A DNA stretch of 64,000 bases, taken from an uncultured Anaerolineales bacterium (GTDB lineage Bacteria > Chloroflexota > Anaerolineae > CG2-30-64-16). Below, in pieces: positions 3,702 to 57,249 of the stretch. The stretch is taken from positions 9,450-73,449 of the forward strand of contig CAZTMA010000005.1 of the NCBI GenBank assembly GCA_964614645.1, given 5' to 3'. Both the position numbers and the translations under genes were made by a program. The notes below the pieces were generated by a model that saw only the letters and a program-made list of their open reading frames with translations, did not search any database and had not been told where the DNA came from. Every line of letters starts with the position of its first letter. Within the stretch, counting starts at the first letter, position 1.

Positions 3702-5105
3702 ATGTCCTTGAATTCAGCGCCAGCCCGCCGGCTCAACCGTGCTCTGGACAGCCTGTGGTATCTTGCCAGCGCGCCGCAGACCCTGGCGTTGCTGTCGGCG
3801 CTATTGGCTGCAACGCTCGCGTTCGCAGCCAGCGTCTCGCAGATGCCGCGCGGCCTGGATGCGAATGCAGAGGAACGGTGGCTGGCCTCGGTTCTGCCCC
3901 GCTTCGGCCAGTTCAGTCCATTCCTGCGTGCCATCGGCGCCTTCAATGTCCTTGAGGGCGTGTTTGTTCACGCACTCCTGGCTGCACTGGCGTTCGTTCT
4001 GACCCTGCGGCTCGCGGCTCAGGTGCGCTTTGCCGTCCGCCTGCAGCAGCAAACGGCCATTCCGCTTGCGCCAATCGGGTTGCCGGTCGCGCAGGCGGAC
4101 GCGCGCGGCGCGCTGGCCGACGTCGCACCCCGCATCATTGCCGCCTGTCGCACCATCTTCCCTGTGACCCGAGTCACCGAGGAGGAAGGGCATGTACAGG
4201 TCTATGCCGAACGACGGCGTGTCGGGGCCTGGGCCCCTGCCGCGACCTACCTCGGCGCGCTGCTATTGCTGGCTGGATTGTGGGTAGACAGCCTGCTGGG
4301 TTGGGGTGCACCTACGTCCGTGATCCTGGCGCCGGGCGCCAGCGCCGCCGTCGGCGCAGGCGACACGCTCACCCTGACCCTGACAGATGTTGCGGACGCA
4401 CCCAGCCGTTCGACGGTGCTTCTGGCACGCGCAGGACTGGAGACCACCGCCCGCGCGGGGTTCGCGTGGCCGGGCCGCTGGCGTAACGTCTGGCTGGCGC
4501 AACGCGCGACCGGCCCCGCGCTGGTTGTGAGCGCGCAAGACCGCGCCGGCAGGTTGCTGCCATTGCAATCGCTGGCCGCCGACGGCGAGGTCGGCGAGAC
4601 CCTCCAACTCCTGTTCAGCGAGACGCAAAACGAGCAAGCCTTCGCGATTCCGACCCTCAACCTGACGCTGCGAGCCATCTACTATCCTGCGCTGCCCGAC
4701 CGCGGCATCACCGCGCCGGTCTACCAGGTCGAAGCCTACCGCGAGGACGAAGCCGCGCCGCTTGCCAGCGCCCTCATTGAGGATGAGGCCGAGGTCCCGC
4801 TGGACAGCGTCACTTTGAACCTGGCCGCAGAGCGTTACGTCGAGCTGGCCGTCGCTTATTTGCCCGGCCTGGCCCTGGTCGCCCTGGGCGGGGTCCTGCT
4901 GCTGGCCGGGGCCATGCTGTCCGCGTGCTGTGGACCCTTGCGCATGTGGGTGGACCTGACCACGAGCGCGGACGGTGCGCGCGTTGTAGTGCGGCAGGCG
5001 CTGCCGTTCTTCCCCCGCCGCGAAGCAGCACAGCTACTCAAACATGCAGCCGCGCCGGTCGCGCTGCCGGCCTCGCCGCCCGACGAGTTGCCGCATGACG
5101 CCTGA
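3702..5105 (+). CDS. Membrane protein with ResB/Ccs1-like architecture: N-terminal transmembrane helices, a large extracytoplasmic domain, and a C-terminal transmembrane helix. The family assignment is tentative.
   Basis: The N-terminal region resembles the ResB start. The middle ~250 aa is hydrophilic and the C-terminus carries one more helix. The ATG at 3702 is in frame with the TTG at 3684. Confidence 0.35.
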   Translation: MSLNSAPARRLNRALDSLWYLASAPQTLALLSALLAATLAFAASVSQMPRGLDANAEERWLASVLPRFGQFSPFLRAIGAFNVLEGVFVHALLAALAFVLTLRLAAQVRFAVRLQQQTAIPLAPIGLPVAQADARGALADVAPRIIAACRTIFPVTRVTEEEGHVQVYAERRRVGAWAPAATYLGALLLLAGLWVDSLLGWGAPTSVILAPGASAAVGAGDTLTLTLTDVADAPSRSTVLLARAGLETTARAGFAWPGRWRNVWLAQRATGPALVVSAQDRAGRLLPLQSLAADGEVGETLQLLFSETQNEQAFAIPTLNLTLRAIYYPALPDRGITAPVYQVEAYREDEAAPLASALIEDEAEVPLDSVTLNLAAERYVELAVAYLPGLALVALGGVLLLAGAMLSACCGPLRMWVDLTTSADGARVVVRQALPFFPRREAAQLLKHAAAPVALPASPPDELPHDA

Positions 5106-21717: not shown

Positions 21718-21753
21718 TTGTCAGCCTGTATCACTTACATGAGGAGAAGTAAC

Positions 21754-23091
21754 TTGAAGATTCGAATCACCGTTCTGTTTGCTCTGCTGCTGGCGCTAGT
21801 GCTGGCAGCTTGCGCACCTGTACCCACGACACCTGCCGCGCAGGAACCGGCCACGGTCGCGCCGACCGAAGTCGTGGCAGAGATGACGGCCACCCCGCTG
21901 CCCGCGGAAGAGGCTGCACCTGAGGAACCAGCGGCAACCGATGACACGCGGCCCGTTGTGCCCGCGCCGGTGGATGGCGAGCGCCCTCTCGCCGCGCTGC
22001 CTGCGGCGGAGCGCGAGGAACGCTTCAGTGGACCGGCCGAGACTTACGTCAAGCCCGACACGGTCTACATCGCCACGATTGTCACCGCTAAGGGCAACAT
22101 CGTCGCGGAGCTGTACCAGGACACCCCGGAGAGCCTCAACAACTTTGTGACACTGGCGCTGAACGGCTACTACGATGGCCTGACGTTCCACCGGGTGGAG
22201 CCCGGCTTCGTCGTGCAAGGCGGCGATCCGGCCGGCACTGGCATGGGCGGCCCTGGCTACACCATCCCCGCGGAAATTATCCACAAACACCCGCGCGGTG
22301 CGCTGGCCTGGGCCCGCACCGGCGACCAGGTGAACCCGGAACGCCGCTCCAGCGGCAGCCAGTTCTACATCACCCTCGACGTCACCGAATTCCTGGATAA
22401 TGGCTACACGGTCTTCGGCTACGTCGTCGAGGGCATGGATATCGTAGACCAGATTGCCGTCGGTGACACGATCGAGCGCATTGACATCAGCGAGGGCACG
22501 GCCTCACAACTGCCGACGCCCGTACCGACGCCGACCCCCTACGCTCCGACCACTGCAGAGGGTCGCCCGCTGGCGCAGCTCTCGCTGGAAGAGCGCGACG
22601 GCGTTTACAACGCCGCGCCTGAACTGGACCTGGACACGGCCAAGACGTATCAGGCGACCCTCGAGACTGACAAGGGCAATATCGTGATCGAACTGAATAC
22701 CGAGGCCGCGCCCCTGACAGTCAGCAACTTCGTCATGCTGGCAAACCTGGGGTACTATGATGGGATGCCGGTTGCGCACGTGCAGGCCGACACCTACCTG
22801 ATTATCGGCTCGCCTGCGGGCCGGCCCGACAGCGATGTGGGCTACTCGCTCGAAATCGAAGCCGGCGCGGCTGCGCAAGAGGTGATTACCGGCACGGTGG
22901 CGATGTACCCCGTGCCGGACAGCACGGGCGCGCTCAAGGCCAGCGGCAGCCAGTTCTTCATTTCCTTCATGGCGTTGCCGCAGAGCGAAACGCCGCTGGA
23001 TATCTTCGGCGCCGTCGTTGAGGGCATGGATATCGTGCTGCAACTGGGCATCGGCGATCTGGTCAACCAGATTACGGTTACTGAGAAATAA
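21754..23091 (+). CDS. Lipoprotein carrying two tandem cyclophilin-type peptidyl-prolyl isomerase domains.
   Basis: TTG start after GAGGAGA. Signal peptide with lipobox LAAC. Two cyclophilin cores separated by a PTPVPTPTP linker. Confidence 0.75.
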
Positions 23092-29002: not shown

Positions 29003-30034
29003 GTGTCAGTCATTTCCATGAAGCAGCTGTTGGAAGCGGGCGTCCACTTTGGGCACCGCACGCGGCGTTGGCATCCGAAGATGCGCACGTTCATCTTCAC
29101 CGAGCGCAACGGCATTCACATCATCGACCTCCAGCAGACCATGCGGCAGGTCAACAACGCCTATACCGTCGTCCGTGACACCGTGCGAGAGGGCGGACTG
29201 GTGCTGTTCGTCGGCACCAAGAAGCAGGCGCAAGAAACCATCCGGCAGGAAGCCGAGCGTGCGGGCATGCCCTTCATCGTGCAGCGGTGGCTGGGCGGCA
29301 CGCTGACCAACTTCCGCACCATTCGCCTGCGCACCGAGTACATGCAGGAACTGGAGCGCCGCGAGGCCCGCGGCGAGCTGGACCGCCTGCCCAAAAAGGA
29401 AGCCCTGCTGCTGCGCAATGAGCTGCAACGTCTGAACACCCGCATCGGCGGCCTGCGTAACATGACGCACCTGCCCGACATGATCTTCATCGTCGACGTG
29501 ATGCGTGAGTCGCTGGCGGTCACCGAGGCCAACAAGCTGAATATCCCGATTGTCGCGATGGTCGATACCAACTGCGACCCGGACCCGATCACTTACCCCA
29601 TTCCGTCGAACGACGACGCCATCCGCGCCATCAAGCTGATGGCCGGCAAGATGGCCGACGCCGTGATCGAGGGGTTGCAGATGCGCACGATCGACGAGGC
29701 CGATCGCGGCGCGGCTGCGGCTGCGGACTATGAGCCGGATGAACTGGCCGACGAGAAGCCGACCTATGTATCCGTGCAGGATATGATGGAACAGGACACC
29801 CCGGAAGGCGAGCCCGAGGAATACCTTGGCCCGTCCGTACTGGCACGCCTGGCCCAGGGTCTTGACGAGGAAGCCGTCCCCGCAGCGACCGAGAGCACTG
29901 AACCGGCCACACCTGAACCGGTCGCCACTGAACCGGCCGTAACTGAACCGGCCACACCTGAACCGGCCGCCACTGAATCGGCCGTAACTGAACCGGCCGA
30001 ACCCGCAGCGACCGACGCGGAAGAAGTGAACTAA
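29003..30034 (+). CDS. rpsB: 30S ribosomal protein S2 with a ~90-aa low-complexity C-terminal extension containing tandem (T/V)EPA-type repeats.
   Basis: GTG start. [27 protein letters not shown] matches the S2 N-terminus. RBS AAAGGGAG. Confidence 0.9.
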
Positions 30035-30044
30035 GGAGTTCAGC

Positions 30045-30635
30045 GTGGAAATCACCGCAGCCATGGTTAAGGACCTGCGCGCGCTCAGCGGCGCAGGGGT
30101 TTTGGAATGCCGTAAAGCGCTGGAAACGGCAGGGGGCGACCTCAACAAGGCAGCCGAGCTGTTGCGCGAGAAGGGCATGGCCGTTGCGGCCAAGAAAGCC
30201 AGCCGCGAGGCCCGCGAAGGGCTGATCGGCCATTACATTCACATGGGCAGCAAGGTCGCCGGGCTGGTCGAGGTCAACTGCGAGTCCGACTTCGTGGCCC
30301 GCACCGAGCAGTTCCAGGCGCTCTGCAAGGACCTGGCAATGCAGGTTGTGGCCGCCCGGCCCACCTACGTACGCATCGAGGACATCCCGGCAGACGTGGC
30401 CGAACAACAGCGGACGCAGTTCCGCTCCGAGGTCGATGCCAGCAAGCCGGCCGAGGTTGCTGAGCGCATCATCGAAGGCAAGATGGCGAAGTTCTACGAG
30501 GAAAACGTCTTGCTCGAGCAGCCGTTCATCAAGGATGAAGGCGTACGCATCAAGGACCTGATTACGCAGACGATTGCGAAGCTGGGCGAAAACATTGTCG
30601 TCCGGCGCTTCAGCCGCTTCGAAGTCGGCGGCTGA
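30045..30635 (+). CDS. tsf: Elongation factor Ts, short form.
   Basis: GTG start after AAGGAG. UBA-like N-terminus [24 protein letters not shown]. Confidence 0.9.
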
Positions 30636-30641
30636 GCCGGC

Positions 30642-31358
30642 ATGAGTGCTCTCCGCTATCGCCGCATTTTGCTGAAGTTGGGGGGCGAGGCCCTGGCCGG
30701 CGAGGGTGGTTTTGGCATTGATCCCAATCAAGCCAACATCGTCGCCGGCAAGATTCGCCGCCTGCTGGACATGGGCGCAGAAGTCGCGGTCGTCATCGGT
30801 GCGGGGAACCTCTGGCGCGGGAAAGACGGCCAGGAACACGGCATGGAGCATGTCACCGCCGACCACATGGGCATGTTGGCGACGGTGATGAATGCCCTGG
30901 CCCTGGCCGACGCCCTGCGTCGCTTCGGCATCGAACCGCGCGTGATGACAGCCATCGGAATGCAGAGCGTAGCCGAGCCATACATCCGCGGTCGGGCCAT
31001 CCGGCATCTGGAAAAGGGCTACGTCATCCTGCTGGCCGCGGGTACGGGCAATCCGTACTTCACCACTGATACGGCCGCCGCGTTGCGCGCCATGGAAATC
31101 CACGCGGAAGTCGTCATCAAGGCGACCAAAGTGGATGGCGTCTACGACAAAGATCCTAAGCGCAACCCGGATGCCAAGCGATTTGAGCGTCTCACCTACA
31201 TCCAGGCCCTCAACATGCGCGTCGGTGTCATGGATAACACTGCGCTAACGCTGTGCATGGACAATGAGATGCCGATTATAGTGCTCGACCTCTGGCAGCC
31301 GGGCGCTGTCGAGCAAGCTGTGCTCGGTGAGACGGTCGGGACGCTGGTCAGCGCGTGA
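30642..31358 (+). CDS. pyrH: UMP kinase.
   Basis: [11 protein letters not shown]...[11 protein letters not shown] motifs. Confidence 0.9.
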
Positions 31359-31384
31359 TCATCAACTAGGAAAAGGAGTGTCTC

Positions 31385-31942
31385 GTGATCAAAGATGTTC
31401 TGCAAGATGCTCGCGAGCGTATGCACAAGACCGTTGAGTCCCTGCAGAACGATCTGCGGGGCATCCGCACCGGCCGCGCCTCGCCCGCCTTACTCGAAGG
31501 GGTCAAGGTGGACTACTATGGCACGCCGACCGGCCTGAACCAACTGGCCGGCGTCACTGCCCCGGAGCCGCGGCTGCTCGTCATCCGCCCCTGGGATCGC
31601 TCGACTATCAGCGTCATCGAGAAGGCCATCCTGAAGTCGGACTTGGGTCTTAACCCCAATAATGACGGCCAGGTCATCCGGCTGGTCATCCCGCAACTGA
31701 CGGAAGAACGCCGCCGCGACCTGAGCAAACAGGTTGCGAAACGGGTCGAGGAGGCGCGCATTTCCGTGCGCAACATCCGCCGTGACGCCATCGATATGCT
31801 GCGCGACCTCGAAAAGGAGAAGCTGATCAGCGAAGATGACGAGGAAGAAGGCAGCAAGAAGGTGCAGGACTTGACCGACGACTTCATTAAGCAGGTCAAC
31901 GAAGTCGGCAAGGCCAAAGAGGCCGAAATCCTCGAAGGATGA
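31385..31942 (+). CDS. frr: Ribosome recycling factor.
   Basis: 185 aa. GTG start after AAAAGGAG. Confidence 0.9.
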   Translation: MIKDVLQDARERMHKTVESLQNDLRGIRTGRASPALLEGVKVDYYGTPTGLNQLAGVTAPEPRLLVIRPWDRSTISVIEKAILKSDLGLNPNNDGQVIRLVIPQLTEERRRDLSKQVAKRVEEARISVRNIRRDAIDMLRDLEKEKLISEDDEEEGSKKVQDLTDDFIKQVNEVGKAKEAEILEG

Positions 31943-32095
31943 CGCGAGAAACGATGGACCGACACAACCAGCCCAGGTACAACTAACCTGAAGCTGGAGG
32001 ATGACTGCGCCCTTCAAAAAAAGCAGAACCGATCTTCTGCGTGGTCCGTCTATTTCGTGGTTGCACTTAGGCGTTGCGCAGTCTGAAAGGCCCTT

Positions 32096-32842
32096 ATGCC
32101 GAGCCCAACCTGGCGTGAACGTTACCCGGAAGTCACGCGCGTCCCCTACCACGTGGGCATCATCATGGATGGCAACGGCCGGTGGGCGCAGAGCCGCGGG
32201 CAGCCCCGGCTGGCAGGCCACAAGGCCGGCACGGAAAACATCCGCCGCGTCCTGCGTGCGGCGACCGACTTCGGCATCAAAGCCCTCACCATCTACGCCT
32301 TCTCCACGGAAAATTGGGGCCGCCCGGCCGACGAAGTCGCGGGGCTGATGAGCCTGCTGGGACAGGTTATCCGTCGCGAGACGCGGGACCTGCACGCCAA
32401 CGGGGTGCGCATCCTCCATAGCGGCCGGCTGGAAGGGATTGCGCCCAATCTCGTGCGCGATATCCAGGATGCGATCGCCATGACGCGCGACAACGACCGC
32501 ATCACGCTCAATGTGGCCTTCAACTACGGGGGCCGCGCCGAAATCGTGGACGCCGTCCGCCACATCATGCGAGACGGTCACACGCCCGAGGAAGTGACCG
32601 AGGAACTCATCTCGCACTACCTGTACACCGGTGGCCTGCCCGACGCCGACCTGATTGTGCGCACGGGCGGGGAGTATCGCCTCAGCAACTTCCTGCTGTG
32701 GCAATCCGCATACGCGGAATACTATGCTACACCGACCTTCTGGCCCGATTTCGATGAAGGCGAGCTGGCCGCGGCACTGGTCGAGTATAGCCAACGCGAG
32801 CGCCGGTTCGGCAAAGTCCCCTCCGCTGACACAACTCAATAA
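32096..32842 (+). CDS. uppS: Undecaprenyl-diphosphate synthase.
   Basis: [13 protein letters not shown]...FSTENW motifs. Confidence 0.9.
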
Positions 32843-32864
32843 CCCCATTCGCCCGGAGACAGCC

Positions 32865-33671
32865 ATGCTGCGCGCGCGCGTCTTGAGCGCCATCATCGTG
32901 GTTCCCGTAGTCGCCCTGGTTCTCTATTGGGGCGACCTGCCCTGGCTCGGCATCATCCTCGTGACCGGTGCCTTGGCCTGGCTAGAGATGAACGGGCTGT
33001 TGCGCCGCCCGGCGTGGTCAGCCGATCGCCTCCTCAGCCTGGCATTCATCGTTGCTGCCCTGCTGGAAGCCTATTTCCGCCAGAGCGGTCACCTGCGCAT
33101 GGACCTCTTTCGCCCGCTGGTGGCGGCGCTGCTCATACTGGGGCTGGTAGCCGCCCTCTATGACAAAGCGGACCAGCCGGTGCAGCAGTGGGCCATGAAC
33201 ACTGCATCTTCCCTCTATCTCGGGTTCCTGCTCAGCCATTTCGTCACCCTGCGCCTCCTGCCGGATGGCCTGCGCTGGGCCCTGGCCGGGCTGCTGCTCA
33301 CCTGGATCTATGACGCGGCGGCCTATTTTGTCGGCAGCATGCTGGGCAGGCACAAGCTGTGGCCGCGGATCAGCCCCAAAAAATCATGGGAAGGTCTGGC
33401 CGGCGGCACGTTCGCCATCCTCATCGTGGGGCCGTTGCTCGGTCTGTGGTTGCTGGATATTGGCCCGACACGCGGGCTGCTGTTGGCCGCGCTGGTTGCA
33501 CTGGCCGCACCCTTCGGTGACTTTGCTATCTCGCTCCTCAAGCGGACAGCCCAGGCGAAGGACAGCGGCCATCTGATTCCCGGTCACGGCGGTGTCCTCG
33601 ACCGGCTCGATAGCCTGCTCTTCACCTTTCCGGTGGTCACTTATTTCGCAATCTTCAGCCTCGGGGGGTAA
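32865..33671 (+). CDS. cdsA: Phosphatidate cytidylyltransferase.
   Basis: C-terminal signature SLLKRTAQAKDSGHLIPGHGGVLDRLDS. Confidence 0.85.
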   Translation: MLRARVLSAIIVVPVVALVLYWGDLPWLGIILVTGALAWLEMNGLLRRPAWSADRLLSLAFIVAALLEAYFRQSGHLRMDLFRPLVAALLILGLVAALYDKADQPVQQWAMNTASSLYLGFLLSHFVTLRLLPDGLRWALAGLLLTWIYDAAAYFVGSMLGRHKLWPRISPKKSWEGLAGGTFAILIVGPLLGLWLLDIGPTRGLLLAALVALAAPFGDFAISLLKRTAQAKDSGHLIPGHGGVLDRLDSLLFTFPVVTYFAIFSLGG

Positions 33672-39166: not shown

Positions 39167-39195
39167 TTGACACAGACGCCCGGACCTAATATAAT
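39167..39195 (+). promoter_or_regulatory. Consensus sigma70 promoter.
   Basis: -35 TTGACA (39167-39172), 17-bp spacer, -10 TATAAT (39190-39195). An imperfect hairpin plus T5 run follows at about 39209-39243. Confidence 0.45.
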
Positions 39196-39285
39196 TGTAC
39201 AGCTTGAGCGGGTGAGACCCAACGTCTGTCTCGCCTGCTTTTTCTGTCTGCAATCAAACTGATACAATGTCAGGAGTTCTAATTC

Positions 39286-39426
39286 ATGTCAACCAAGCGA
39301 ACGTATCAACCGAAGAGCCGCCGCCGGGCGCGCGTGCACGGCTTTTTCAGCCGCATGAGCACCCATGTAGGCCGGCGCGTGCTGAAGGCACGCCGGGCGA
39401 GAGGCCGTAAGCGACTCACGGTCTAG
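39286..39426 (+). CDS. rpmH: 50S ribosomal protein L34.
   Basis: [46 protein letters not shown]. Not in the supplied ORF track because it is under 60 aa. RBS AGGAG. Confidence 0.92.
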
Positions 39427-42072: not shown

Positions 42073-42951
42073 GTGCCCATAGATTTCCTGACAATCGGCC
42101 ACATCACCCATGACCGCACCCCTGAGGGATTCCGCCTCGGCGGCACCGTGTCTTTTGCAGCCGTCACCGCGCGGCGACTGGGCCACCAGCCAGCCATCGT
42201 CACCCGTGGCTCAGCCGAGTTGTTGCACGACGGCGCGGACACCGCCACGCGCGGCTACCACGTCGCCCCCCCAGGCAGCCCGCTGGCAGGGATTCCGATC
42301 CGGCTGCTGCCTTCGCCCGTCAGCACGACCTTTACGAATATCTATCATGGCGGCCAACGCACCCAAATCCTCGAGGCCCTGGCCGATCCGATCGCGCCTG
42401 ACGAGCTGCCCGACGAGTGGCGCGCCGCGGCCATCGTCCTGCTGGGGCCGATTGCCCGCGAGATTCCGACCGAGTGGGCTGACGTCTTTCCCAACTCCCT
42501 TGTCGGCATCACACCCCAGGGCTGGATGCGCCAATGGGATGAGGCAGGGCACGTCCGCCCAGCGGGCTGGCACAACGCGGCCCCGTTCCTGCGCCATGCG
42601 GATGCCGTCATCCTGAGCCGTGAGGATGTCGGCGGCGATGACGCGTATCTGAAGGACCTGGCAGAGCAGACGAAACTGCTGGTTGTAACCGACGGCTATC
42701 ACGGCGCCTGGATCTATACCGGCGGCCATAGCTACCATATTCGCCCGCGTGCCGCTCAGGAAGTGGACCCGACGGGAGCAGGCGACGTCTTTGCCACATC
42801 GTTTCTCATTCACCTCAGCGAGACGGGCGACCCGTTGGCCGCTGCGCGCTTCGCCAACATCGTCGCGTCGATGTCCATCGAAGCTCCGGGGATGGACGCC
42901 ATCCCGGAGCGGGCGCAGGTTGATGCCTGGTTGAGACAGCAAGCGACATGA
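42073..42951 (+). CDS. PfkB-family carbohydrate kinase, ribokinase-like.
   Basis: N-terminal glycine-rich FLTIGHITHD region and the C-terminal DPTGAGD anion-hole motif. GTG start with a TGTTACAAT -10 upstream. Confidence 0.7.
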   Translation: MPIDFLTIGHITHDRTPEGFRLGGTVSFAAVTARRLGHQPAIVTRGSAELLHDGADTATRGYHVAPPGSPLAGIPIRLLPSPVSTTFTNIYHGGQRTQILEALADPIAPDELPDEWRAAAIVLLGPIAREIPTEWADVFPNSLVGITPQGWMRQWDEAGHVRPAGWHNAAPFLRHADAVILSREDVGGDDAYLKDLAEQTKLLVVTDGYHGAWIYTGGHSYHIRPRAAQEVDPTGAGDVFATSFLIHLSETGDPLAAARFANIVASMSIEAPGMDAIPERAQVDAWLRQQAT

Positions 42952-43745
42952 CGCGCATCTACGCATTCGCCAACCAAAAGGGCGGCGTCGGCAAGACTAC
43001 CACCGCGGTCAACCTGGCCGCGTATCTGGCCGATGCCGGGCGACGCGTGCTGCTCATCGATTCCGACCCGCAGGCCAATGCGACCAGCAGCCTGGGCGTG
43101 GATGCGACAACCCTGCCGGCTTCCCTCTACGATGTCCTCGTGCGCCGCGTGCCGCTGACCGACATCATCATGTCCACCGACCTGCCCGGGCTGGCCCTGG
43201 CGCCCAGCGCCCCGGCACTGGCCGGCGCGGAAGTGGAGATGGTCTCCATGCTGGCCCGCGAACACCTGCTGCGTCGCGCGCTGGATGGTGTGAGCGAGCA
43301 GTATGACCACGTCCTGGTGGATTGCCCGCCCAGTCTCGGCCTGTTGACTCTGAACGCGCTGACCTGTGCCACCGACGGCGTCATCGTGCCCATCCAGTGC
43401 GAATATCTGGCTCTGGAGGGACTGGGCCGGCTGTGGCAGACCATCCAACTCGTGCGCGAGAACCTCAACCCGCAGCTCTATATCAGCGGCCTGATTCTGA
43501 CCATGTTCGACTCGCGCACCAACCTGGCCGAACAGGTCGCCAACGAAGTGCGCACCCATTTCAGCGAGCAGACTTTCCGTACCGTCATTCCGCGCAGTAT
43601 CCGCCTGAGCGAAGCGCCCAGCTACGGGCGCACCATCATGAACTATGCGCCGCAATCTGCCGGCGCGCTGGCCTACCAGGCGCTGGCGCAGGAGTTGCTG
43701 GAGCGGGAAGCGATCTTAGGGTCGATTCAGAAAAGGGTCGCGTAG
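42948..43745 (+). CDS. parA: Chromosome-partitioning ATPase ParA/Soj.
   Basis: Deviant Walker A NQKGGVGKTTT. Confidence 0.9.
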   Translation: MTRIYAFANQKGGVGKTTTAVNLAAYLADAGRRVLLIDSDPQANATSSLGVDATTLPASLYDVLVRRVPLTDIIMSTDLPGLALAPSAPALAGAEVEMVSMLAREHLLRRALDGVSEQYDHVLVDCPPSLGLLTLNALTCATDGVIVPIQCEYLALEGLGRLWQTIQLVRENLNPQLYISGLILTMFDSRTNLAEQVANEVRTHFSEQTFRTVIPRSIRLSEAPSYGRTIMNYAPQSAGALAYQALAQELLEREAILGSIQKRVA

Positions 43746-43826
43746 CCCCTTGCGGGCGTTCTCACGGGCACATGGCCCTATGCGACAATTCCTGAGTGGA
43801 ACCGCGGTGTGAGGCAGGAGGTTGAC

Positions 43827-44732
43827 ATGCCACAACCAACACGTGGACTGGGCCGGGGCCTGGGTGCGCTCATTCCGCAGGGGAGCCGGGCCAATGAGCC
43901 GTCGGAAGAAGGGACTCAGCCAGCGCCGGGCATCCTCCAGGTCCCGGTGGGCGAGATCGTCCCCAACCCACGCCAGCCGCGCGGCAAGATTGCCCCGGAA
44001 TCGCTGAACGAGCTGGCCGCCTCCATCCGCGAACACGGGATGCTCCAGCCGCTCATCGTCACCCGCGGCCGGCCAACCGACCGCGTGCCGTATCAGCTCA
44101 TTGCAGGTGAGCGGCGCTGGCGGGCCGCGCAATTGGCCGGACTGCCGACCGTGCCGGTGCTCATCAAAGAGGCGACCCCTCAGCAGTTGCTCGAGATTGC
44201 GCTCGTGGAGAACATCCAGCGCGCGGACCTCAACGCGCTGGAGGAGGCGGAAGCCTACCATGCGCTCATCGAGGATTTCCGGCTGAGCCAGCAGGAAGTG
44301 GCCGACCGCGTGGGCCGCAACCGGGTGACGGTCGCGAATGCGCTGCGCCTGCTGCGGCTGCCCGATGCGGTCAAGGCGCTGCTCTCGGAGGGGGAGCTCA
44401 CCGAGGGCCATGCCCGCGCGCTGCTGGGGCTGGATGACGACACGCTCATCGAACGGGCCGCGGAGCAGGTGACAACACGCGGGTTGAACGTCCGCCAGAC
44501 CGAGGAACTGGTCCGGCGCCTTCTCGCGGCGCAACAGAATGAGGCAGCTGGTGAAGCGGAGGACGCTGCGCCCCCCGATCCCCTGACCCGCCAGCTCGAG
44601 GACGCCTTCCGCGGCGCACTCGGCACGAAAGTTGCACTTACGCGCGGCCGCCGCGGCGGTCGCCTGGTCATCTCCTTCTACTCGGACGAGGAATTGCAGA
44701 CCATCTACGAACGGATTGTGGGGAACGAGTGA
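43827..44732 (+). CDS. parB: Chromosome-partitioning protein ParB/Spo0J.
   Basis: Conserved ParB-box region GERRWRAA and an HTH. ATG after RBS AGGCAGGAGG. Confidence 0.9.
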   Translation: MPQPTRGLGRGLGALIPQGSRANEPSEEGTQPAPGILQVPVGEIVPNPRQPRGKIAPESLNELAASIREHGMLQPLIVTRGRPTDRVPYQLIAGERRWRAAQLAGLPTVPVLIKEATPQQLLEIALVENIQRADLNALEEAEAYHALIEDFRLSQQEVADRVGRNRVTVANALRLLRLPDAVKALLSEGELTEGHARALLGLDDDTLIERAAEQVTTRGLNVRQTEELVRRLLAAQQNEAAGEAEDAAPPDPLTRQLEDAFRGALGTKVALTRGRRGGRLVISFYSDEELQTIYERIVGNE

Positions 44733-52437: not shown

Positions 52438-53516
52438 AAGTTGCCCTTGTCCATGACTGGCTGAACCAGGTCGGCGGCGCAGAGTACGTGCTGGAAGTGC
52501 TAGTGAGCATGTTCCCGGCCGCGCCGGTCTTCACCAGCATCTACGCACCTGCGAGGATGCCGCCCGCCTACCAGGCATGGGATATCCGGCCTAGCTTCAT
52601 GCAGCGGCTCCCCGGGGTGATGGCCCACCACCAGGTCTACCTGCCGGTCTATCCGCTGGCATTCAGCCGGGTGAACCTGCAGGGCTATGACCTGGTGGTG
52701 AGCAACAAGAGCGGCTTCTGCCACGGCGTGCAGCCGCCGCCGGGCGGCACGCACATCTGCTACTGCCTGACGCCGACCCGCTTTCTTTGGCAATATGACA
52801 CCTACCGGCAGCGTGAAGCCATCCGCCCGACGCTGGACCGGCTGCTGCGGCCGTTGATCGCCGCGCTGCGGCGGTGGGACTATGCCGCGGCCCAGCGTGT
52901 CCATCACTTCATTGCGATTTCGAGCGAGATCCAGGAGCGCATCCGCCGGTTCTACGGCCGCGAGAGCGCCATCATCTATCCGCCCGTGGACATCGCGCAG
53001 TTCCGGCCGGACGGTGGACCGGCCGGCGACTACTTCCTGGCCGGCGGCCGGCTGATTCCCTACAAGCGGTTGGACCTGGCCGTGCGGGCCTGCTCAGAGC
53101 TGGGGCTAAAGCTGTTCGTCTACGGGGCCGGTCGCGACCGCTCTGCGCTGGAGCAGGTGGCCGGGCCGACCGTGACGTTCCTGGGCCGCGTGCCCGCCGA
53201 TGAACTGGCACAGCTCTACCGCGGCGCACGGGCCTTCATCTTCCCCGGCCTGGAGGATTTCGGCATCGCGCCGCTGGAAGCCCAGGCTGCGGGCCGGCCG
53301 GTCATCGCATTCCGCGGCGGCGGTGCGCTGGACACGGTCATCCCCGGCTGCACCGGCGAGTTCTTTGCCGAACAGACACCGGCAGCCCTGATGCAGGTGC
53401 TCAGCCAGTTCGACCCGGGGGCCTATGACGCGGCTGCGTGTCGCACTAACGCCGAACGCTTCAGCCGGGAGCGGTTCGAGCGCGAGCTGGGCGAGTATAT
53501 TGCAAGGACGGTCTAA
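52434..53516 (+). CDS. Glycosyltransferase family 4.
   Basis: MKVALVHDWL... N-terminus and C-terminal FIFPGLEDFGIAPLEAQAAGRPVI. Confidence 0.8.
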   Translation: MKVALVHDWLNQVGGAEYVLEVLVSMFPAAPVFTSIYAPARMPPAYQAWDIRPSFMQRLPGVMAHHQVYLPVYPLAFSRVNLQGYDLVVSNKSGFCHGVQPPPGGTHICYCLTPTRFLWQYDTYRQREAIRPTLDRLLRPLIAALRRWDYAAAQRVHHFIAISSEIQERIRRFYGRESAIIYPPVDIAQFRPDGGPAGDYFLAGGRLIPYKRLDLAVRACSELGLKLFVYGAGRDRSALEQVAGPTVTFLGRVPADELAQLYRGARAFIFPGLEDFGIAPLEAQAAGRPVIAFRGGGALDTVIPGCTGEFFAEQTPAALMQVLSQFDPGAYDAAACRTNAERFSRERFERELGEYIARTV

Positions 53517-54202
53517 TGGAGCTGCGTGCCTACTGGAACATTATCATGCGGCGCTGGTGGCTGCCCGTGGGGCTGGCGCTGGCGGTCGCGGCCCTGACCC
53601 TGGTCATGCAGCGGCCCTGGCAGCCCCGGCCACCGGTGTACGCGGCCTCGATGCGCTTCAACGTCGGCGTCCAGCCCGAGCGCATCCCCGGCGTCTACAC
53701 CTACGACCGCTACTACACCCTGCTGACTTCAGAATACCTGGTGGACGACCTGGGCGAAATCGTGCGCAGCAGCGCATTTGCCGCGGCCGTGAGCGAGCGG
53801 CTGGCTGGACAAGGCATCACCGTAGCGCCCGGCGCCATCGGGGCCAGCACGCAGCCCGGCAAATTGCACCGCATCCTGACGGTTCATGTGACCTGGCCCG
53901 ATGCGGACGTGCTGGCGGCCATCGCAAACGCAGTTGCAGCCACGCTGACCGAGGGCAGCGCGGAGTTCTTCGGCCAGTTCAGCGCGGAAGAAGCCGATAT
54001 CCGGCTCATCGACGCGCCGTCGGTCAGCGCGGTGGGCCGCCCGGCGCGCGAGCAGCTTGACCTGCCGCTGCGCGTACTGCTGGCCCTGGCCGCAGGCATC
54101 GGCCTGACCTTCCTGCTGGATTACCTCGATACTTCGGTGCGTGAGCGGCGTGACCTGGAGGAACTAGGGCTGCCGGTGCTGGGCGAGGTACCGCGGCGCT
54201 GA
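53516..54202 (+). CDS. Polysaccharide chain-length determinant (Wzz/CapA-like) protein without a kinase domain.
   Basis: N-terminal and C-terminal transmembrane segments flank a periplasmic domain. Confidence 0.5.
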   Translation: MELRAYWNIIMRRWWLPVGLALAVAALTLVMQRPWQPRPPVYAASMRFNVGVQPERIPGVYTYDRYYTLLTSEYLVDDLGEIVRSSAFAAAVSERLAGQGITVAPGAIGASTQPGKLHRILTVHVTWPDADVLAAIANAVAATLTEGSAEFFGQFSAEEADIRLIDAPSVSAVGRPAREQLDLPLRVLLALAAGIGLTFLLDYLDTSVRERRDLEELGLPVLGEVPRR

Positions 54203-54204
54203 AA

Positions 54205-54351
54205 GTATCCACAATGGCCCGAACTAGCGTCTAAACGTGGCCCACTAGGGGTAGGGGCCGCCCCTGTCTCGAAGCCTAATGCTGCCCTGCATGTCAAGAC
54301 TTATCCACACAGCGCCCCGGTTATCCACACGAAAGGGGCCAGTTATCCACA
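54205..54351 (+). promoter_or_regulatory. Cluster of four DnaA boxes, a candidate oriC element. Three are perfect TTATCCACA (54301, 54321, 54343) and one is GTATCCACA (54205).
   Basis: Direct reading of the sequence. All four lie in the same orientation downstream of dnaA. Confidence 0.55.
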
Positions 54352-54361
54352 GAAATGCCTT

Positions 54362-54417
54362 AAAAGCCACCTGGGGATGTCTGCCGTCAGCCGTGCAGAG
54401 ACCCCCAGGTGGCTTTT
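54362..54417. terminator. Bidirectional rho-independent terminator that serves dnaA on the minus strand.
   Basis: 15-bp perfect stem AAAAGCCACCTGGGG/CCCCAGGTGGCTTTT, giving an A-tract and T-tract on both strands. It lies 16 nt after the dnaA stop. Confidence 0.65.
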
Positions 54418-54432
54418 ATAGTCGTGCGTATA

Positions 54433-55857
54433 TCAGGCGCGCGCGTGCCCGTTCTGGCGGACGCGCACCGGCTCATACAGCCGGTTGCGCAGGTCGTTCA
54501 CGGTGCGGGCAAGATCGGGGTCGTTGTCCAGCTCGCTGCTCACCCGCTCACAGCCGTGCAAGACAGTCGTGTGGTCACGCCCGCCCAGGACCAATGCGAT
54601 CTGCGGCAGCGAGGCGCCCGTTTCCTCCCGCATGACGTGCATGACCACCTGGCGTTGCAATGCAATGCGCGCGCTGCGGTTGCGGCCTTTCAGGTCCTCG
54701 ACCGTGACGCCGAAGTACTCGGCGGCAACATCGAGGATTGCGTCGAGGCTGAGCTTGCTCTGAGCGGGGGCCAGATAGGCCAGCGCATCTTCCACCAGCC
54801 CCGCATTGAGCGGCCGGTGGAAGAACTCGGCATGCGCCAGCACCTTATTCAGCGCGCCCTCCAGGTCGCGGATGTTGCGATAGGCGCGCTGTGCAATCAG
54901 GTGCAAAATATCGTTCGGCACATCCCGCCCCAGCGAAGCCGCCTTCGCCTGCAGGATGGCGATACGCGTCTCCAGGTTGGGCGGCTGGATATCCGCAATC
55001 ATGCCCCAGCCGAAGCGCGAGCGCAGCCGCTCCTCCAGGGTCGGAATGGCCTGGGGCGGGCGGTCGCTGGTCATCACAATCTGGCGGTTGGCCGCGTGGA
55101 GCGCATTGAAGGTGTGGAAGAACTCCTCCTGCGTTTGCTCCTTGCCCGCAATGAAATGGACATCATCCAGCAGCAACACGTCGATCGTACGGTACTTCGC
55201 CCGGAACTGGTCGGTGGATTGCATGCGGATGGCGTTGATGAGGTCGTTGGTGAAGACTTCCGACGTGACATACAATACACGCTTGCCCATTGTCTGCACG
55301 GTGTGACCGATGGCCTGCAACAAGTGAGTCTTGCCCAGCCCGCTGCCGCCATAGAGGAAGAGCGGGTTGTATGCTGTGCCGGGACGCTCGGAGACGGCCA
55401 GCGCAGAGGCATGCGCCATACGGTTGGACGGCCCTACAATGAAGGTGTCGAAGCTATAGCGCGCACTCAGGTCGGCCCCATACGTCGCCTTCGGCTCGGC
55501 GGGCGCAGGCTCGGCCTGGGTCTCATATGCGAGCAGCGGAACCGGCGGCGCGTCCGGGTCATCTGCCACCGGCGTGGCCTGAACCACAAACGTAACCTCC
55601 ACCGTCCGGCCCACGATGCCGGTCAGCGTGCGTTTGATCAGGGGGCGGAGCCGGAGCGAGAGCCAATCCTTCGCGTACGCGTTGCCGACTCCGATCACAA
55701 AAGCTCCGTCCTCATGGGCCAGGCACTCGGTGTCCCGAACCCATGTCTCGTAGGTGCTCCGGGGCAACTGCAGCCGCAACTGGCTGCGCGCGGTGTCCCA
55801 GACATCCCTGGCGGATCTGTTTGTCGGCACTTCAACGGCACACATGGCAATCACCAT
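54433..55857 (-). CDS. dnaA: Chromosomal replication initiator protein DnaA.
   Basis: AAA+ motifs YNPLFLYGGSGLGKTHLLQAIGH, box VII and the C-terminal DNA-binding domain. Confidence 0.92.
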   Translation of the reverse strand: MVIAMCAVEVPTNRSARDVWDTARSQLRLQLPRSTYETWVRDTECLAHEDGAFVIGVGNAYAKDWLSLRLRPLIKRTLTGIVGRTVEVTFVVQATPVADDPDAPPVPLLAYETQAEPAPAEPKATYGADLSARYSFDTFIVGPSNRMAHASALAVSERPGTAYNPLFLYGGSGLGKTHLLQAIGHTVQTMGKRVLYVTSEVFTNDLINAIRMQSTDQFRAKYRTIDVLLLDDVHFIAGKEQTQEEFFHTFNALHAANRQIVMTSDRPPQAIPTLEERLRSRFGWGMIADIQPPNLETRIAILQAKAASLGRDVPNDILHLIAQRAYRNIRDLEGALNKVLAHAEFFHRPLNAGLVEDALAYLAPAQSKLSLDAILDVAAEYFGVTVEDLKGRNRSARIALQRQVVMHVMREETGASLPQIALVLGGRDHTTVLHGCERVSSELDNDPDLARTVNDLRNRLYEPVRVRQNGHARA

Positions 55858-56385
55858 TACCCCAAGTTACTCAACGGCAAAACGTCGAACCCGAGTCCGC
55901 AACAACCGGACCGGTCAAAGCTGGCCTAAAGCCCACCTACGAATGACGGTAGCAGACCAAATCGAAGCCCGCCTGACACGCGAGGCGTGCAAGCATCCGG
56001 ATTCATGCCCCTACAAGAAAACGACCGCGTTCGTTTAAGTCAGGACGGCAGGTGGGCCGCCCACAGCAGAAAATCAGAGGAACTCATCACAAGCTGTAGC
56101 ACCCAAGCTGGAGGTGCGGATCCGGTATCGATTGTGCATCCTAATGCGGGGGGCATTCTAGCAAAGGTGTCCGGAGGAGGCAAGGCAGCAGTAAACCGCC
56201 AACTGCTGCCTTGCTGATGCTTATGTAGTCCGGCCGTCGCGCGCACTACTGTTCTACGCGACCGGTTGTGGCAGCTTTCCCGCAGACCACAGTAGGAAGG
56301 CGCAGAAACTGCGCGCGAACCCGACCTTAAATTTAGAGCGCGTGCCAGGTCGTTAAGGTATGTTATGCCAACCGTCCCGCGGGCG

Positions 56386-57249
56386 TCAGGGCGCCTGCTG
56401 CACTTGGATATCACCCACCCGTGAGCGCAGGAAAAGCTCGGTGCCGCCGGGCTCCCCAACCTGCCCGGTGATCTCCTTCCCCGTAAAACCGGGCCGCTCT
56501 TGCTGGCCGACGACATCGAAGTCCACGGTTGCATCACCGATATCGCTGCGCGCTTCGATATGGAACGCGCTCTCACGCGGCAGTTGCAGCAGGATGCGTC
56601 CCACGTCGCTGGTCATCCGGTACGTGGCGCCGGTTGTTAACGTGCCTGCGAACCGGATGCTGGCGACCCGCGATTCCACCTCCAGCGCGGCCACCGGCTG
56701 CACATCCGTCAGTTCGACTTCGCCCACGTCGGCTGTGATCTGCACATCGCCGCGCACGCCGTTCACCGCAAGTTGGCCCACGCCGACCTTCAGGTCAAGC
56801 TGTGTCTGCTCGGGCACCGTCACCACCACGTCCACTTGGGGGGTGCGGGGGGTCGCGCTCGCCCCGTCCTGCCAATCCGGCCCCATGACTACAACCCGCA
56901 CGCCCCCAGCGGCCGGCTCGATGGTCACATCGATGCGATTCAGCGTACGCTGCGCTTCGGCGTCATTCCGGCCCCACGCGCGCTTCGTGGCCTCGACCGT
57001 CATCTGGCCGGGCCTGCCGGTGCGGACGGTGAGACTGCCCACTGGCAGGTCAACTTCCAGACTGGCCGGGTCGCTCACCTCCAGCGTACTGGCAACTGTG
57101 GCAGTCACCTCGTTGTTGGCGCTCCAGACCCAGTTCGCCCCGCGCTGCAGGTTGCGGGCGAGCACGAGACCGCCCAGGCTTGCAACGAAACAGCAGACCG
57201 CCAGCACTGCCAGCAGCAGGACAATCCACAGCGTGCGATTACTTCTCAT
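56386..57249 (-). CDS. DUF4097-like beta-strand-repeat protein (putative adhesin/LiaG-like) with an N-terminal transmembrane anchor.
   Basis: Start at ATG 57249 after GGAGGAG. N-terminal transmembrane segment. Repetitive (V/L)xVxTxxGD(I/V) beta-strand units. Confidence 0.55.
   Translation of the reverse strand: MRSNRTLWIVLLLAVLAVCCFVASLGGLVLARNLQRGANWVWSANNEVTATVASTLEVSDPASLEVDLPVGSLTVRTGRPGQMTVEATKRAWGRNDAEAQRTLNRIDVTIEPAAGGVRVVVMGPDWQDGASATPRTPQVDVVVTVPEQTQLDLKVGVGQLAVNGVRGDVQITADVGEVELTDVQPVAALEVESRVASIRFAGTLTTGATYRMTSDVGRILLQLPRESAFHIEARSDIGDATVDFDVVGQQERPGFTGKEITGQVGEPGGTELFLRSRVGDIQVQQAP

Follow-up and report, generated by a model that had tools for sequence, protein, structure and literature searches.

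The spacer directly 3' of dnaA holds an array of DnaA boxes that is a real, selected structure and, judged from its sequence and its conservation, a predicted DnaA-binding one. We read the array as a non-firing site of DnaA assembly, the relic of an ancestral dnaA–dnaN origin that was kept as a titrating or inactivating locus, and we give this reading a probability of about 0.5; what we infer is that DnaA occupies the array, that the array titrates or inactivates DnaA and that it descends from an old origin. The window, which is the whole 64-kb stretch of DNA analyzed here, had been described in a first-pass annotation as an origin region with a candidate oriC at this site. That proposal keeps a conserved box array at the position directly 3' of dnaA, which is the commonest oriC position in bacteria. 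However, the array has neither DnaA-trios nor a consistently placed AT-rich DNA-unwinding element (DUE), shows no skew switch and was lost twice in the clade.

Architecture of the box array

The features of the spacer and of the two genes that border it are as follows.

54301–54309, + strand: perfect DnaA box TTATCCACA, direct sequence match
54321–54329, + strand: perfect DnaA box TTATCCACA, direct sequence match
54343–54351, + strand: perfect DnaA box TTATCCACA, direct sequence match
54205–54213, + strand: distal DnaA box 4, GTATCCACA, one mismatch, beginning 3 nt past the stop of the neighbouring gene
54301–54351, + strand: core triple array, present in 12 clade genomes with 22/20-bp spacing (21/20 in one)
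54243–54256, − strand: palindrome-like motif C[AC]C[TC]A-N4-TAG[TG]G, which is CCCTACCCCTAGTG on the dnaA-sense strand, at a fixed offset in relatives
54275–54280, − strand: motif AWTAGG (ATTAGG on the dnaA-sense strand), at a fixed offset in relatives
54433–55857, − strand: dnaA, 474 aa, with Pfam DnaA_N, Bac_DnaA and Bac_DnaA_C; TIGR00362 at 490.9 bits (cut-off 343.9)
53516–54202, + strand: chain-length-determinant-like gene, 228 aa; TIGR03007 at E = 1.8e-11, below cut-off

The array occupies a 230-bp gap in which two genes converge, one ending at 54202 and the other, dnaA, at 54433. On the dnaA-sense strand, the triple array reads TGTGGATAAC-N13-TGTGGATAAC-N11-TGTGGATAA(C). All four boxes are co-oriented and span 147 bp, three of them being perfect and one carrying a single mismatch; the positions, sequences and common strand given for them in the first-pass annotation were exact on re-checking. 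Box 4 marks the outer boundary of a conserved module of ~150 bp that runs from box 1 to box 4. The spacers between the three strong boxes would accommodate a 9-mer, yet only ~3 of the 9 consensus positions match there, and any low-affinity boxes between the strong ones would be putative. No other 400-bp stretch of the window exceeds one third of the box score of the array, and a second box cluster is absent from all other intergenic regions of the 64 kb. The IHF consensus WATCAANNNNTTR, allowing at most one mismatch, is absent in 10 of the 12 array-carrying genomes. One more perfect TTATCCACA (22277–22285, + strand) lies within a cyclophilin-type isomerase gene (21718–23091); it is isolated and probably a chance occurrence.

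Conservation among relatives

The DnaA protein of the window falls in Chloroflexota, among uncultured Anaerolineae-like genomes. Genome and metagenome collections supplied 14 distinct relatives at 65–80% DnaA identity, and the array could be scored in 13 of these, the sequence of the excluded L087 stopping at the dnaA 3' end. The triple array is found in 12 distinct clade genomes (the window is counted among the 12 in the box-4, motif and hairpin tallies), co-oriented and directly 3' of dnaA, 10–125 bp past its stop codon. The boxes lie on one strand in every relative. The sequence surrounding them is not alignable across the array-carrying genomes, while the boxes and their spacing persist. 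Box 4 is kept in the same orientation ~96 bp from box 3 in nine of the 12 genomes (the window and eight relatives). The two inner motifs are also held at nearly constant distances from box 3: AWTAGG at an offset of +18 to +21 in 7/12 and C[AC]C[TC]A-N4-TAG[TG]G at +43 to +45 in 9/12. Among 160 dnaA loci, the spacing pattern is restricted to the clade of the window and is absent from the ~140 other loci.

The gene past the array changes from genome to genome. It is chain-length-determinant-like in the window, L001–L004 and L082, and purA, an FTR1 permease, PIN toxins, ClpB or bAvd in the other relatives; it is mostly convergent with dnaA, and two relatives have it co-directional. The 228-aa neighbour in the window had been called Wzz-like. 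Its C-terminal 70 residues, and only these, do match chain-length-determinant models, all under cut-off, and the Pfam search gave no match. This gene is a variable flank outside the array module. Since the neighbour varies, synteny stops right at the outer boundary of the module, and this break identifies dnaA plus the array as the unit under selection; by this comparison of predicted genes, the array is linked to dnaA rather than to any neighbour. In L006 (11944–15489), the array is followed by a gene resembling bAvd and by a large one with NACHT and FGE-sulfatase domains, a pairing typical of diversity-generating retroelements.

The array is missing from L005 and L086, where no box was found in the flanks examined; both genomes retain the dnaA gene together with its promoter and the conserved region upstream, and L005 has box-like remnants with three mismatches. 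L005 and L086 are non-sister lineages, and the most divergent member, L090, retains three perfect boxes; therefore, the array is ancestral and was lost at least twice.

Origin-marker genes in the window

The genes rpmH (39286–39426), rnpA, yidD, yidC, jag, parA and parB all lie at 39.3–44.7 kb, with parA and parB at 42948–44732, so the complete set of markers that the first-pass annotation had listed was found. The gene dnaN is absent from the window, and it is also absent within 10 kb of dnaA in every Chloroflexota relative. Thus, the separation of dnaA from dnaN and rpmH, which had been regarded as unusual, is real but normal for Chloroflexota, as in Thermomicrobium roseum (PMC2615216). Although parA and parB are present, no parS site (TGTTNCACGTGAAACA) occurs at up to three mismatches anywhere in the window. 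A perfect TTGACA-17-TATAAT promoter (39168–39196, + strand) lies immediately upstream of rpmH, and this consensus promoter explains an AT-rich dip before rpmH that was considered as an origin candidate. When the whole window was searched against Rfam at the gathering score, tRNA-Thr was the single match, and a permissive search of 53400–56700 gave sub-threshold matches only. One candidate within the dnaA coding region, the dnaA antisense RNA AsdA, reached 26 bits where the gathering score is 52, and was judged a chance match.

Unwinding elements

The basal unwinding module consists of at least three DnaA-trios no more than 16 bp from a box, on the side to which the box points (PMC8287927). The dnaA-proximal box has 0–2 NTN trios within 16 nt in all 12 array-carrying genomes, and runs of 3–4 trios occur in the clade only where they overlap the next box. 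Control dnaA–dnaN spacers from Bacillales have 6–9 trios, followed by a stretch of 3–20% GC. The lowest-GC 30 bp in the window region has 40% GC and contains a box, and the least GC-rich 30-bp stretch is located at a different place in each clade genome, so that no consistently placed DUE is seen. The first-pass annotation had proposed a DUE search of 54203–54432, and this search returned neither an AT-rich element nor trios. By the orientation rule of B. subtilis, the array points at the terminator-like hairpin and, beyond it, at the GC-rich end of the dnaA coding region; the same rule holds in E. coli.

A more distant Chloroflexota locus, L015 (49% DnaA identity), has tandem box-like sequences, TTATCCGCC and GAATCCACC, between dnaA and obg (4604–4650). 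Five consecutive NTN triplets start 12 nt beyond this pair, resembling the box–trio module that is absent in the clade of the window.

Strand composition

The + strand of the window is C-rich by ~0.024 at all three codon positions, in genes of either direction and on both sides of 54.3 kb. The skew is −0.016 for genes on the + strand and −0.032 for genes on the − strand, and for the latter genes it measures −0.030 on the left side of 54.3 kb and −0.036 on the right side. The offset is equal at all codon positions; therefore, it is a property of the strand and not of transcription. This single skew sign, which extends over 64 kb in genes of both orientations, speaks against the description of the window as an origin region.

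Read in the dnaA direction, an origin at the array would give a negative skew on the dnaA side and a positive skew beyond. This switch is absent from all seven clade genomes compared: the skew is positive on either side of the array in three and negative on either side in two, and in the remaining two it goes from positive to near zero. Two more genomes, reached via a conserved methyltransferase ~9 kb upstream of dnaA, show no change of sign as far as 19 kb and 24 kb upstream. As a control, the 8-kb flanks of 88 other dnaA loci were compared in the same crude manner; most of these loci are from Bacillota, in which the origin flanks dnaA. The expected negative-to-positive switch appears in 82 of these 88 loci (93%), with mean values of −0.10 and +0.09, and all four of the more distant loci from Anaerolineae are among the six that do not show it. 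With 82 of 88 controls passing, the skew test is sensitive, and this class fails it as a group. The argument is drawn from flanks of 8–54 kb with a modest amplitude (0.02–0.06), and it covers these flanks rather than whole replicons. GC skew had been named in the first-pass annotation as the measure that could speak against its candidate; the outcome is against an origin within the window and the clade flanks.

In T. roseum, which also belongs to Chloroflexota, the origin markers are scattered and a strongly mirrored skew puts the origin away from dnaA, and the failure of the skew test in Anaerolineae agrees with this arrangement (PMC2615216). The strand composition argues that replication forks would pass through the dnaA locus.

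Weighing the array as an origin

The array could be a working oriC, or the DnaA-assembly half of one, that opens DNA which is not AT-rich, perhaps via dnaA transcription or a protein binding the palindrome. Apart from its place 3' of dnaA, this explanation draws on the fact that the array is the sole box cluster in 64 kb that also carry rpmH, rnpA, yidC, jag and parAB, on the fixed spacing and inner motifs, which resemble an organized nucleoprotein complex, and on the boxes with a trio-like run downstream of dnaA in the distant relative L015. However, of the oriC attributes assessed from sequence, only the box cluster is seen; DnaA-trios, a consistent DUE, a skew switch and retention in all relatives are not. 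The boxes are oriented toward a terminator and the GC-rich end of dnaA, the skew switch is found in 0/7 genomes compared with 93% of the control loci, and the array was dispensed with in two lineages. Moreover, forks starting from the array would make transcription of rpmH–parB head-on. We consider an origin at this site the leading alternative, though an unlikely one.

The hairpin after dnaA

54362–54417, either strand: putatively bidirectional terminator-like hairpin with 15-bp outer arms and an inner stem, set between an AAAA and a TTTT tract

The outer arms of the hairpin are AAAAGCCACCTGGGG (54362–54376) and CCCCAGGTGGCTTTT (54403–54417), and 15 nt lie between the hairpin and the dnaA stop codon. 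The calculated fold energy is −43.5 kcal/mol for the + strand and −45.5 kcal/mol for the − strand, with z = −8 and −9 against shuffled sequences. The hairpin noted in the first pass was thus borne out as a genuine terminator-like structure with correct coordinates and a very stable stem. The adjoining U runs are short (UUUUAU and UUUUAA), and a scan with a simple terminator consensus gave no call because of the long nominal loop and the short T run. A hairpin is found at the same site in seven of the 12 array-carrying genomes (the window, L001–L004, L082 and L089) with unrelated sequences; its position is conserved by structure, not by sequence. In L006, L084, L085 and L090, the first box follows the dnaA stop by 10–28 nt and no hairpin lies between. 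L083 has six tandem 8-mers (GTAGACAN) at 1573–1620, where other relatives have the hairpin, seen in one metagenome contig only.

The four genomes with boxes close to the stop are of interest for a transcriptional role of the array, since their dnaA transcripts must cross the boxes. DnaA at the array could be a roadblock or insulator against convergent read-through into dnaA, regulate the next gene or, in genomes whose boxes precede the terminator, exert feedback of the DnaA level on the dnaA mRNA at its 3' end. The prevalence of convergent neighbours would suit such a role; DnaA is known to act as a transcription factor, and in Pseudomonas aeruginosa gidAB–parAB is regulated by a former origin region (PMC13438810). 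Nevertheless, the position of the array relative to terminators and neighbour promoters is inconsistent among the relatives, and there is no promoter-like site in 54203–54432. The neighbour genes are also mutually unrelated, which leaves no common regulatory target. On balance, a transcriptional role appears improbable.

The region upstream of dnaA

56155–56183, − strand: dnaA promoter, TTGCCT, 17-nt spacer and TAGAAT preceded by TG; the −35 and extended −10 elements are conserved in 12/12 aligned genomes
56184–56372, − strand: conserved block array upstream of the promoter, ~190 bp of near-invariant blocks at fixed spacing

The 528-bp spacer upstream of dnaA had been noted for its lack of a recognizable DnaA box. 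This holds, as no box occurs in 55858–56385 at up to two mismatches to TTATCCACA, and the site TTATGCCAA comes to two mismatches only with the fifth base left free; but the spacer is not featureless, since it contains a promoter and conserved blocks. The promoter (TTGCCT, 17-nt spacer, TGCTAGAAT) is of the sigma-70 type and leaves a 5' leader of ~290 nt. The blocks upstream of it are TTGGCATAAC, CCTTAA-N22-TTTAAGG, GTCGCGTAGAAC, ACATAAG and a CAGT...ACTG palindrome. Every one of the 12 genomes with enough upstream sequence has them (the window, L001–L006, L082, L084, L086, L087 and L089), and hence also L005 and L086, both of which are without the box array. The block array is clade-specific and single-copy; it belongs to the dnaA locus and is not assigned to the box array. 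A structured RNA upstream of dnaA was considered and rejected, as the consensus fold reached only −1.48 kcal/mol with one covarying pair and Rfam gave no match. The upstream region looks like a dense, putative protein-binding control region for dnaA.

The invariance and fixed spacing of these AT-containing blocks in 12 genomes, and the consensus folding that speaks against an RNA, raise the alternative of a split origin spanning dnaA, like those of H. pylori and B. subtilis, in which the downstream boxes would recruit DnaA and the upstream block array would open. A precedent is found in H. pylori, where a DnaA-bound box cluster beside dnaA does not itself unwind and is half of a bipartite origin (PMC3479198). 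However, the upstream array has no trios in addition to its lack of boxes, and its overlap with a clear sigma-70 promoter means that ordinary regulation of the gene suffices to account for it. The missing skew switch applies to this arrangement too, because both halves lie within 2 kb, and we regard a split origin as very improbable.

Lastly, a chance cluster or a functionless, decaying relic, at which the absence from two relatives and the three-mismatch remnants in L005 might hint, is scarcely credible when base composition predicts ~0.13 perfect boxes for the whole window on both strands and four are observed, three of them inside 51 bp, and when the boxes and their exact spacing are kept where DnaA differs by 20–35% and the flanks cannot be aligned.

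Comparison with known DnaA-box loci

We compared the array with the known loci that it most resembles. In E. coli, datA promotes the hydrolysis of ATP bound to DnaA, and deleting it leads to early initiation. The locus is 183 bp long, has co-oriented essential boxes and lies in an intergenic region to which converging genes lead; the long gap separating two of the essential boxes carries a site for an architectural protein (PMC5742627). Like datA, the array is a compact element of ~150–180 bp that lies outside an unwinding site, has co-oriented boxes and is not essential (PMC5742627). Its long inter-box gap likewise holds conserved non-box motifs, and it is mostly located between gene ends. 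Regarding the differences, the array lacks the IHF consensus, and two other conserved motifs occupy the gap. The array has three evenly phased consensus boxes, whereas datA uses boxes 7, 2 and 3; the array is fixed to dnaA, whereas datA lies ~470 kb from oriC and is unlinked to dnaA. The array also comes from a different phylum, and a role in ATP hydrolysis is putative here. In terms of datA-type features, a compact element of co-oriented boxes away from any unwinding site is found and the IHF site is not; with no IHF consensus, the datA mechanism is not simply transferable.

In B. subtilis, non-origin DnaA-box clusters bind DnaA and restrain initiation without firing (PMC3245932). The array resembles these clusters more loosely than it resembles datA, sharing consensus boxes, an intergenic location and proximity to origin-marker genes. 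The B. subtilis clusters have more boxes, in mixed orientation, and none is known to adjoin the dnaA 3' end, where the array lies. In B. subtilis, the dnaA–dnaN spacer is the unwinding part of oriC. The comparison with that incC-type oriC itself shows the same position directly 3' of dnaA and the same consensus TTATCCACA boxes. However, the array is without dnaN, DnaA-trios, an AT-rich DUE and a skew switch, and its boxes face dnaA, whereas those of B. subtilis face away.

The oriCII of P. aeruginosa is also a box cluster in a classical origin neighbourhood, and its documented role is regulatory (PMC13438810); unlike the array, which lies at gene 3' ends with no common target, oriCII is upstream of the gidA promoter. 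The core of three DnaA boxes at fixed spacing recalls DARS1 and DARS2 of E. coli (PMC5742627). Assignment to the DARS type was rejected, as the defining geometry of these elements (PMC5742627) is not seen and the boxes of the array are co-oriented in every relative.

A proposed control site for DnaA

The array is selected, yet it has no unwinding elements, lies in a uniform strand bias and can be lost; therefore, a control site for DnaA assembly is favoured. In its favour are the conserved boxes and their attachment to dnaA, the lack of unwinding elements and of a skew switch, the two losses and the resemblance to datA. On the other side, the array occupies the classical position of oriC 3' of dnaA and would be picked up by an origin predictor. 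Pure titration has no obvious need for 22/20-bp phasing or for a fixed distal box, and the convergent, transcriptionally quiet setting is not universal, given the two co-directional neighbours.

For this control site, we propose that DnaA would assemble head-to-tail on double-stranded DNA at the array without opening it. The array would be the remnant of an ancestral origin between dnaA and dnaN; dnaN, and presumably also the unwinding part, would have moved elsewhere while the remnant stayed, retained for buffering or inactivating DnaA. Being fixed to the 3' end of dnaA, the array would be replicated together with dnaA. The hairpin, where present, may terminate dnaA transcription and shield the array from convergent transcription.

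With considerable doubt, the idea can be extended to a family of Anaerolineae in which the origin became detached from dnaA, dnaN, rpmH–rnpA–yidC–jag and parAB, and in which the old origin became a datA-like locus of DnaA control with a different architectural protein, one binding the conserved palindrome CACTA-N4-TAGTG. To our knowledge, such an element would be the first of its kind outside Proteobacteria and Bacillota. If this is true, an origin has turned into its own regulator.

Automated origin callers and metagenomic estimates of growth rate from peak-to-trough read coverage often assume an origin beside dnaA or at the densest box cluster. The array would be called oriC on the grounds of markers and boxes, yet the further tests point to forks passing through. 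If they do, origin assignment in Anaerolineae needs evidence from skew or coverage, not from marker genes, and the array would exemplify in nature how the remnant of an origin is retained to control the initiator. The main value of the array is thus as a caution for marker-gene-based origin calls in Chloroflexota. The gain is modest, because non-origin DnaA-box clusters are known and T. roseum already showed markers away from the skew-defined origin (PMC2615216).

An atypical region of the window

Elsewhere in the window, a run of − strand ORFs at 29161–33353 has no Pfam match, a lower overall GC content and a strongly positive AT skew. Its two large ORFs (29631–31103 and 31490–32896) have a third-position GC of 0.62–0.66 compared with ~0.8, and the region may be foreign DNA.
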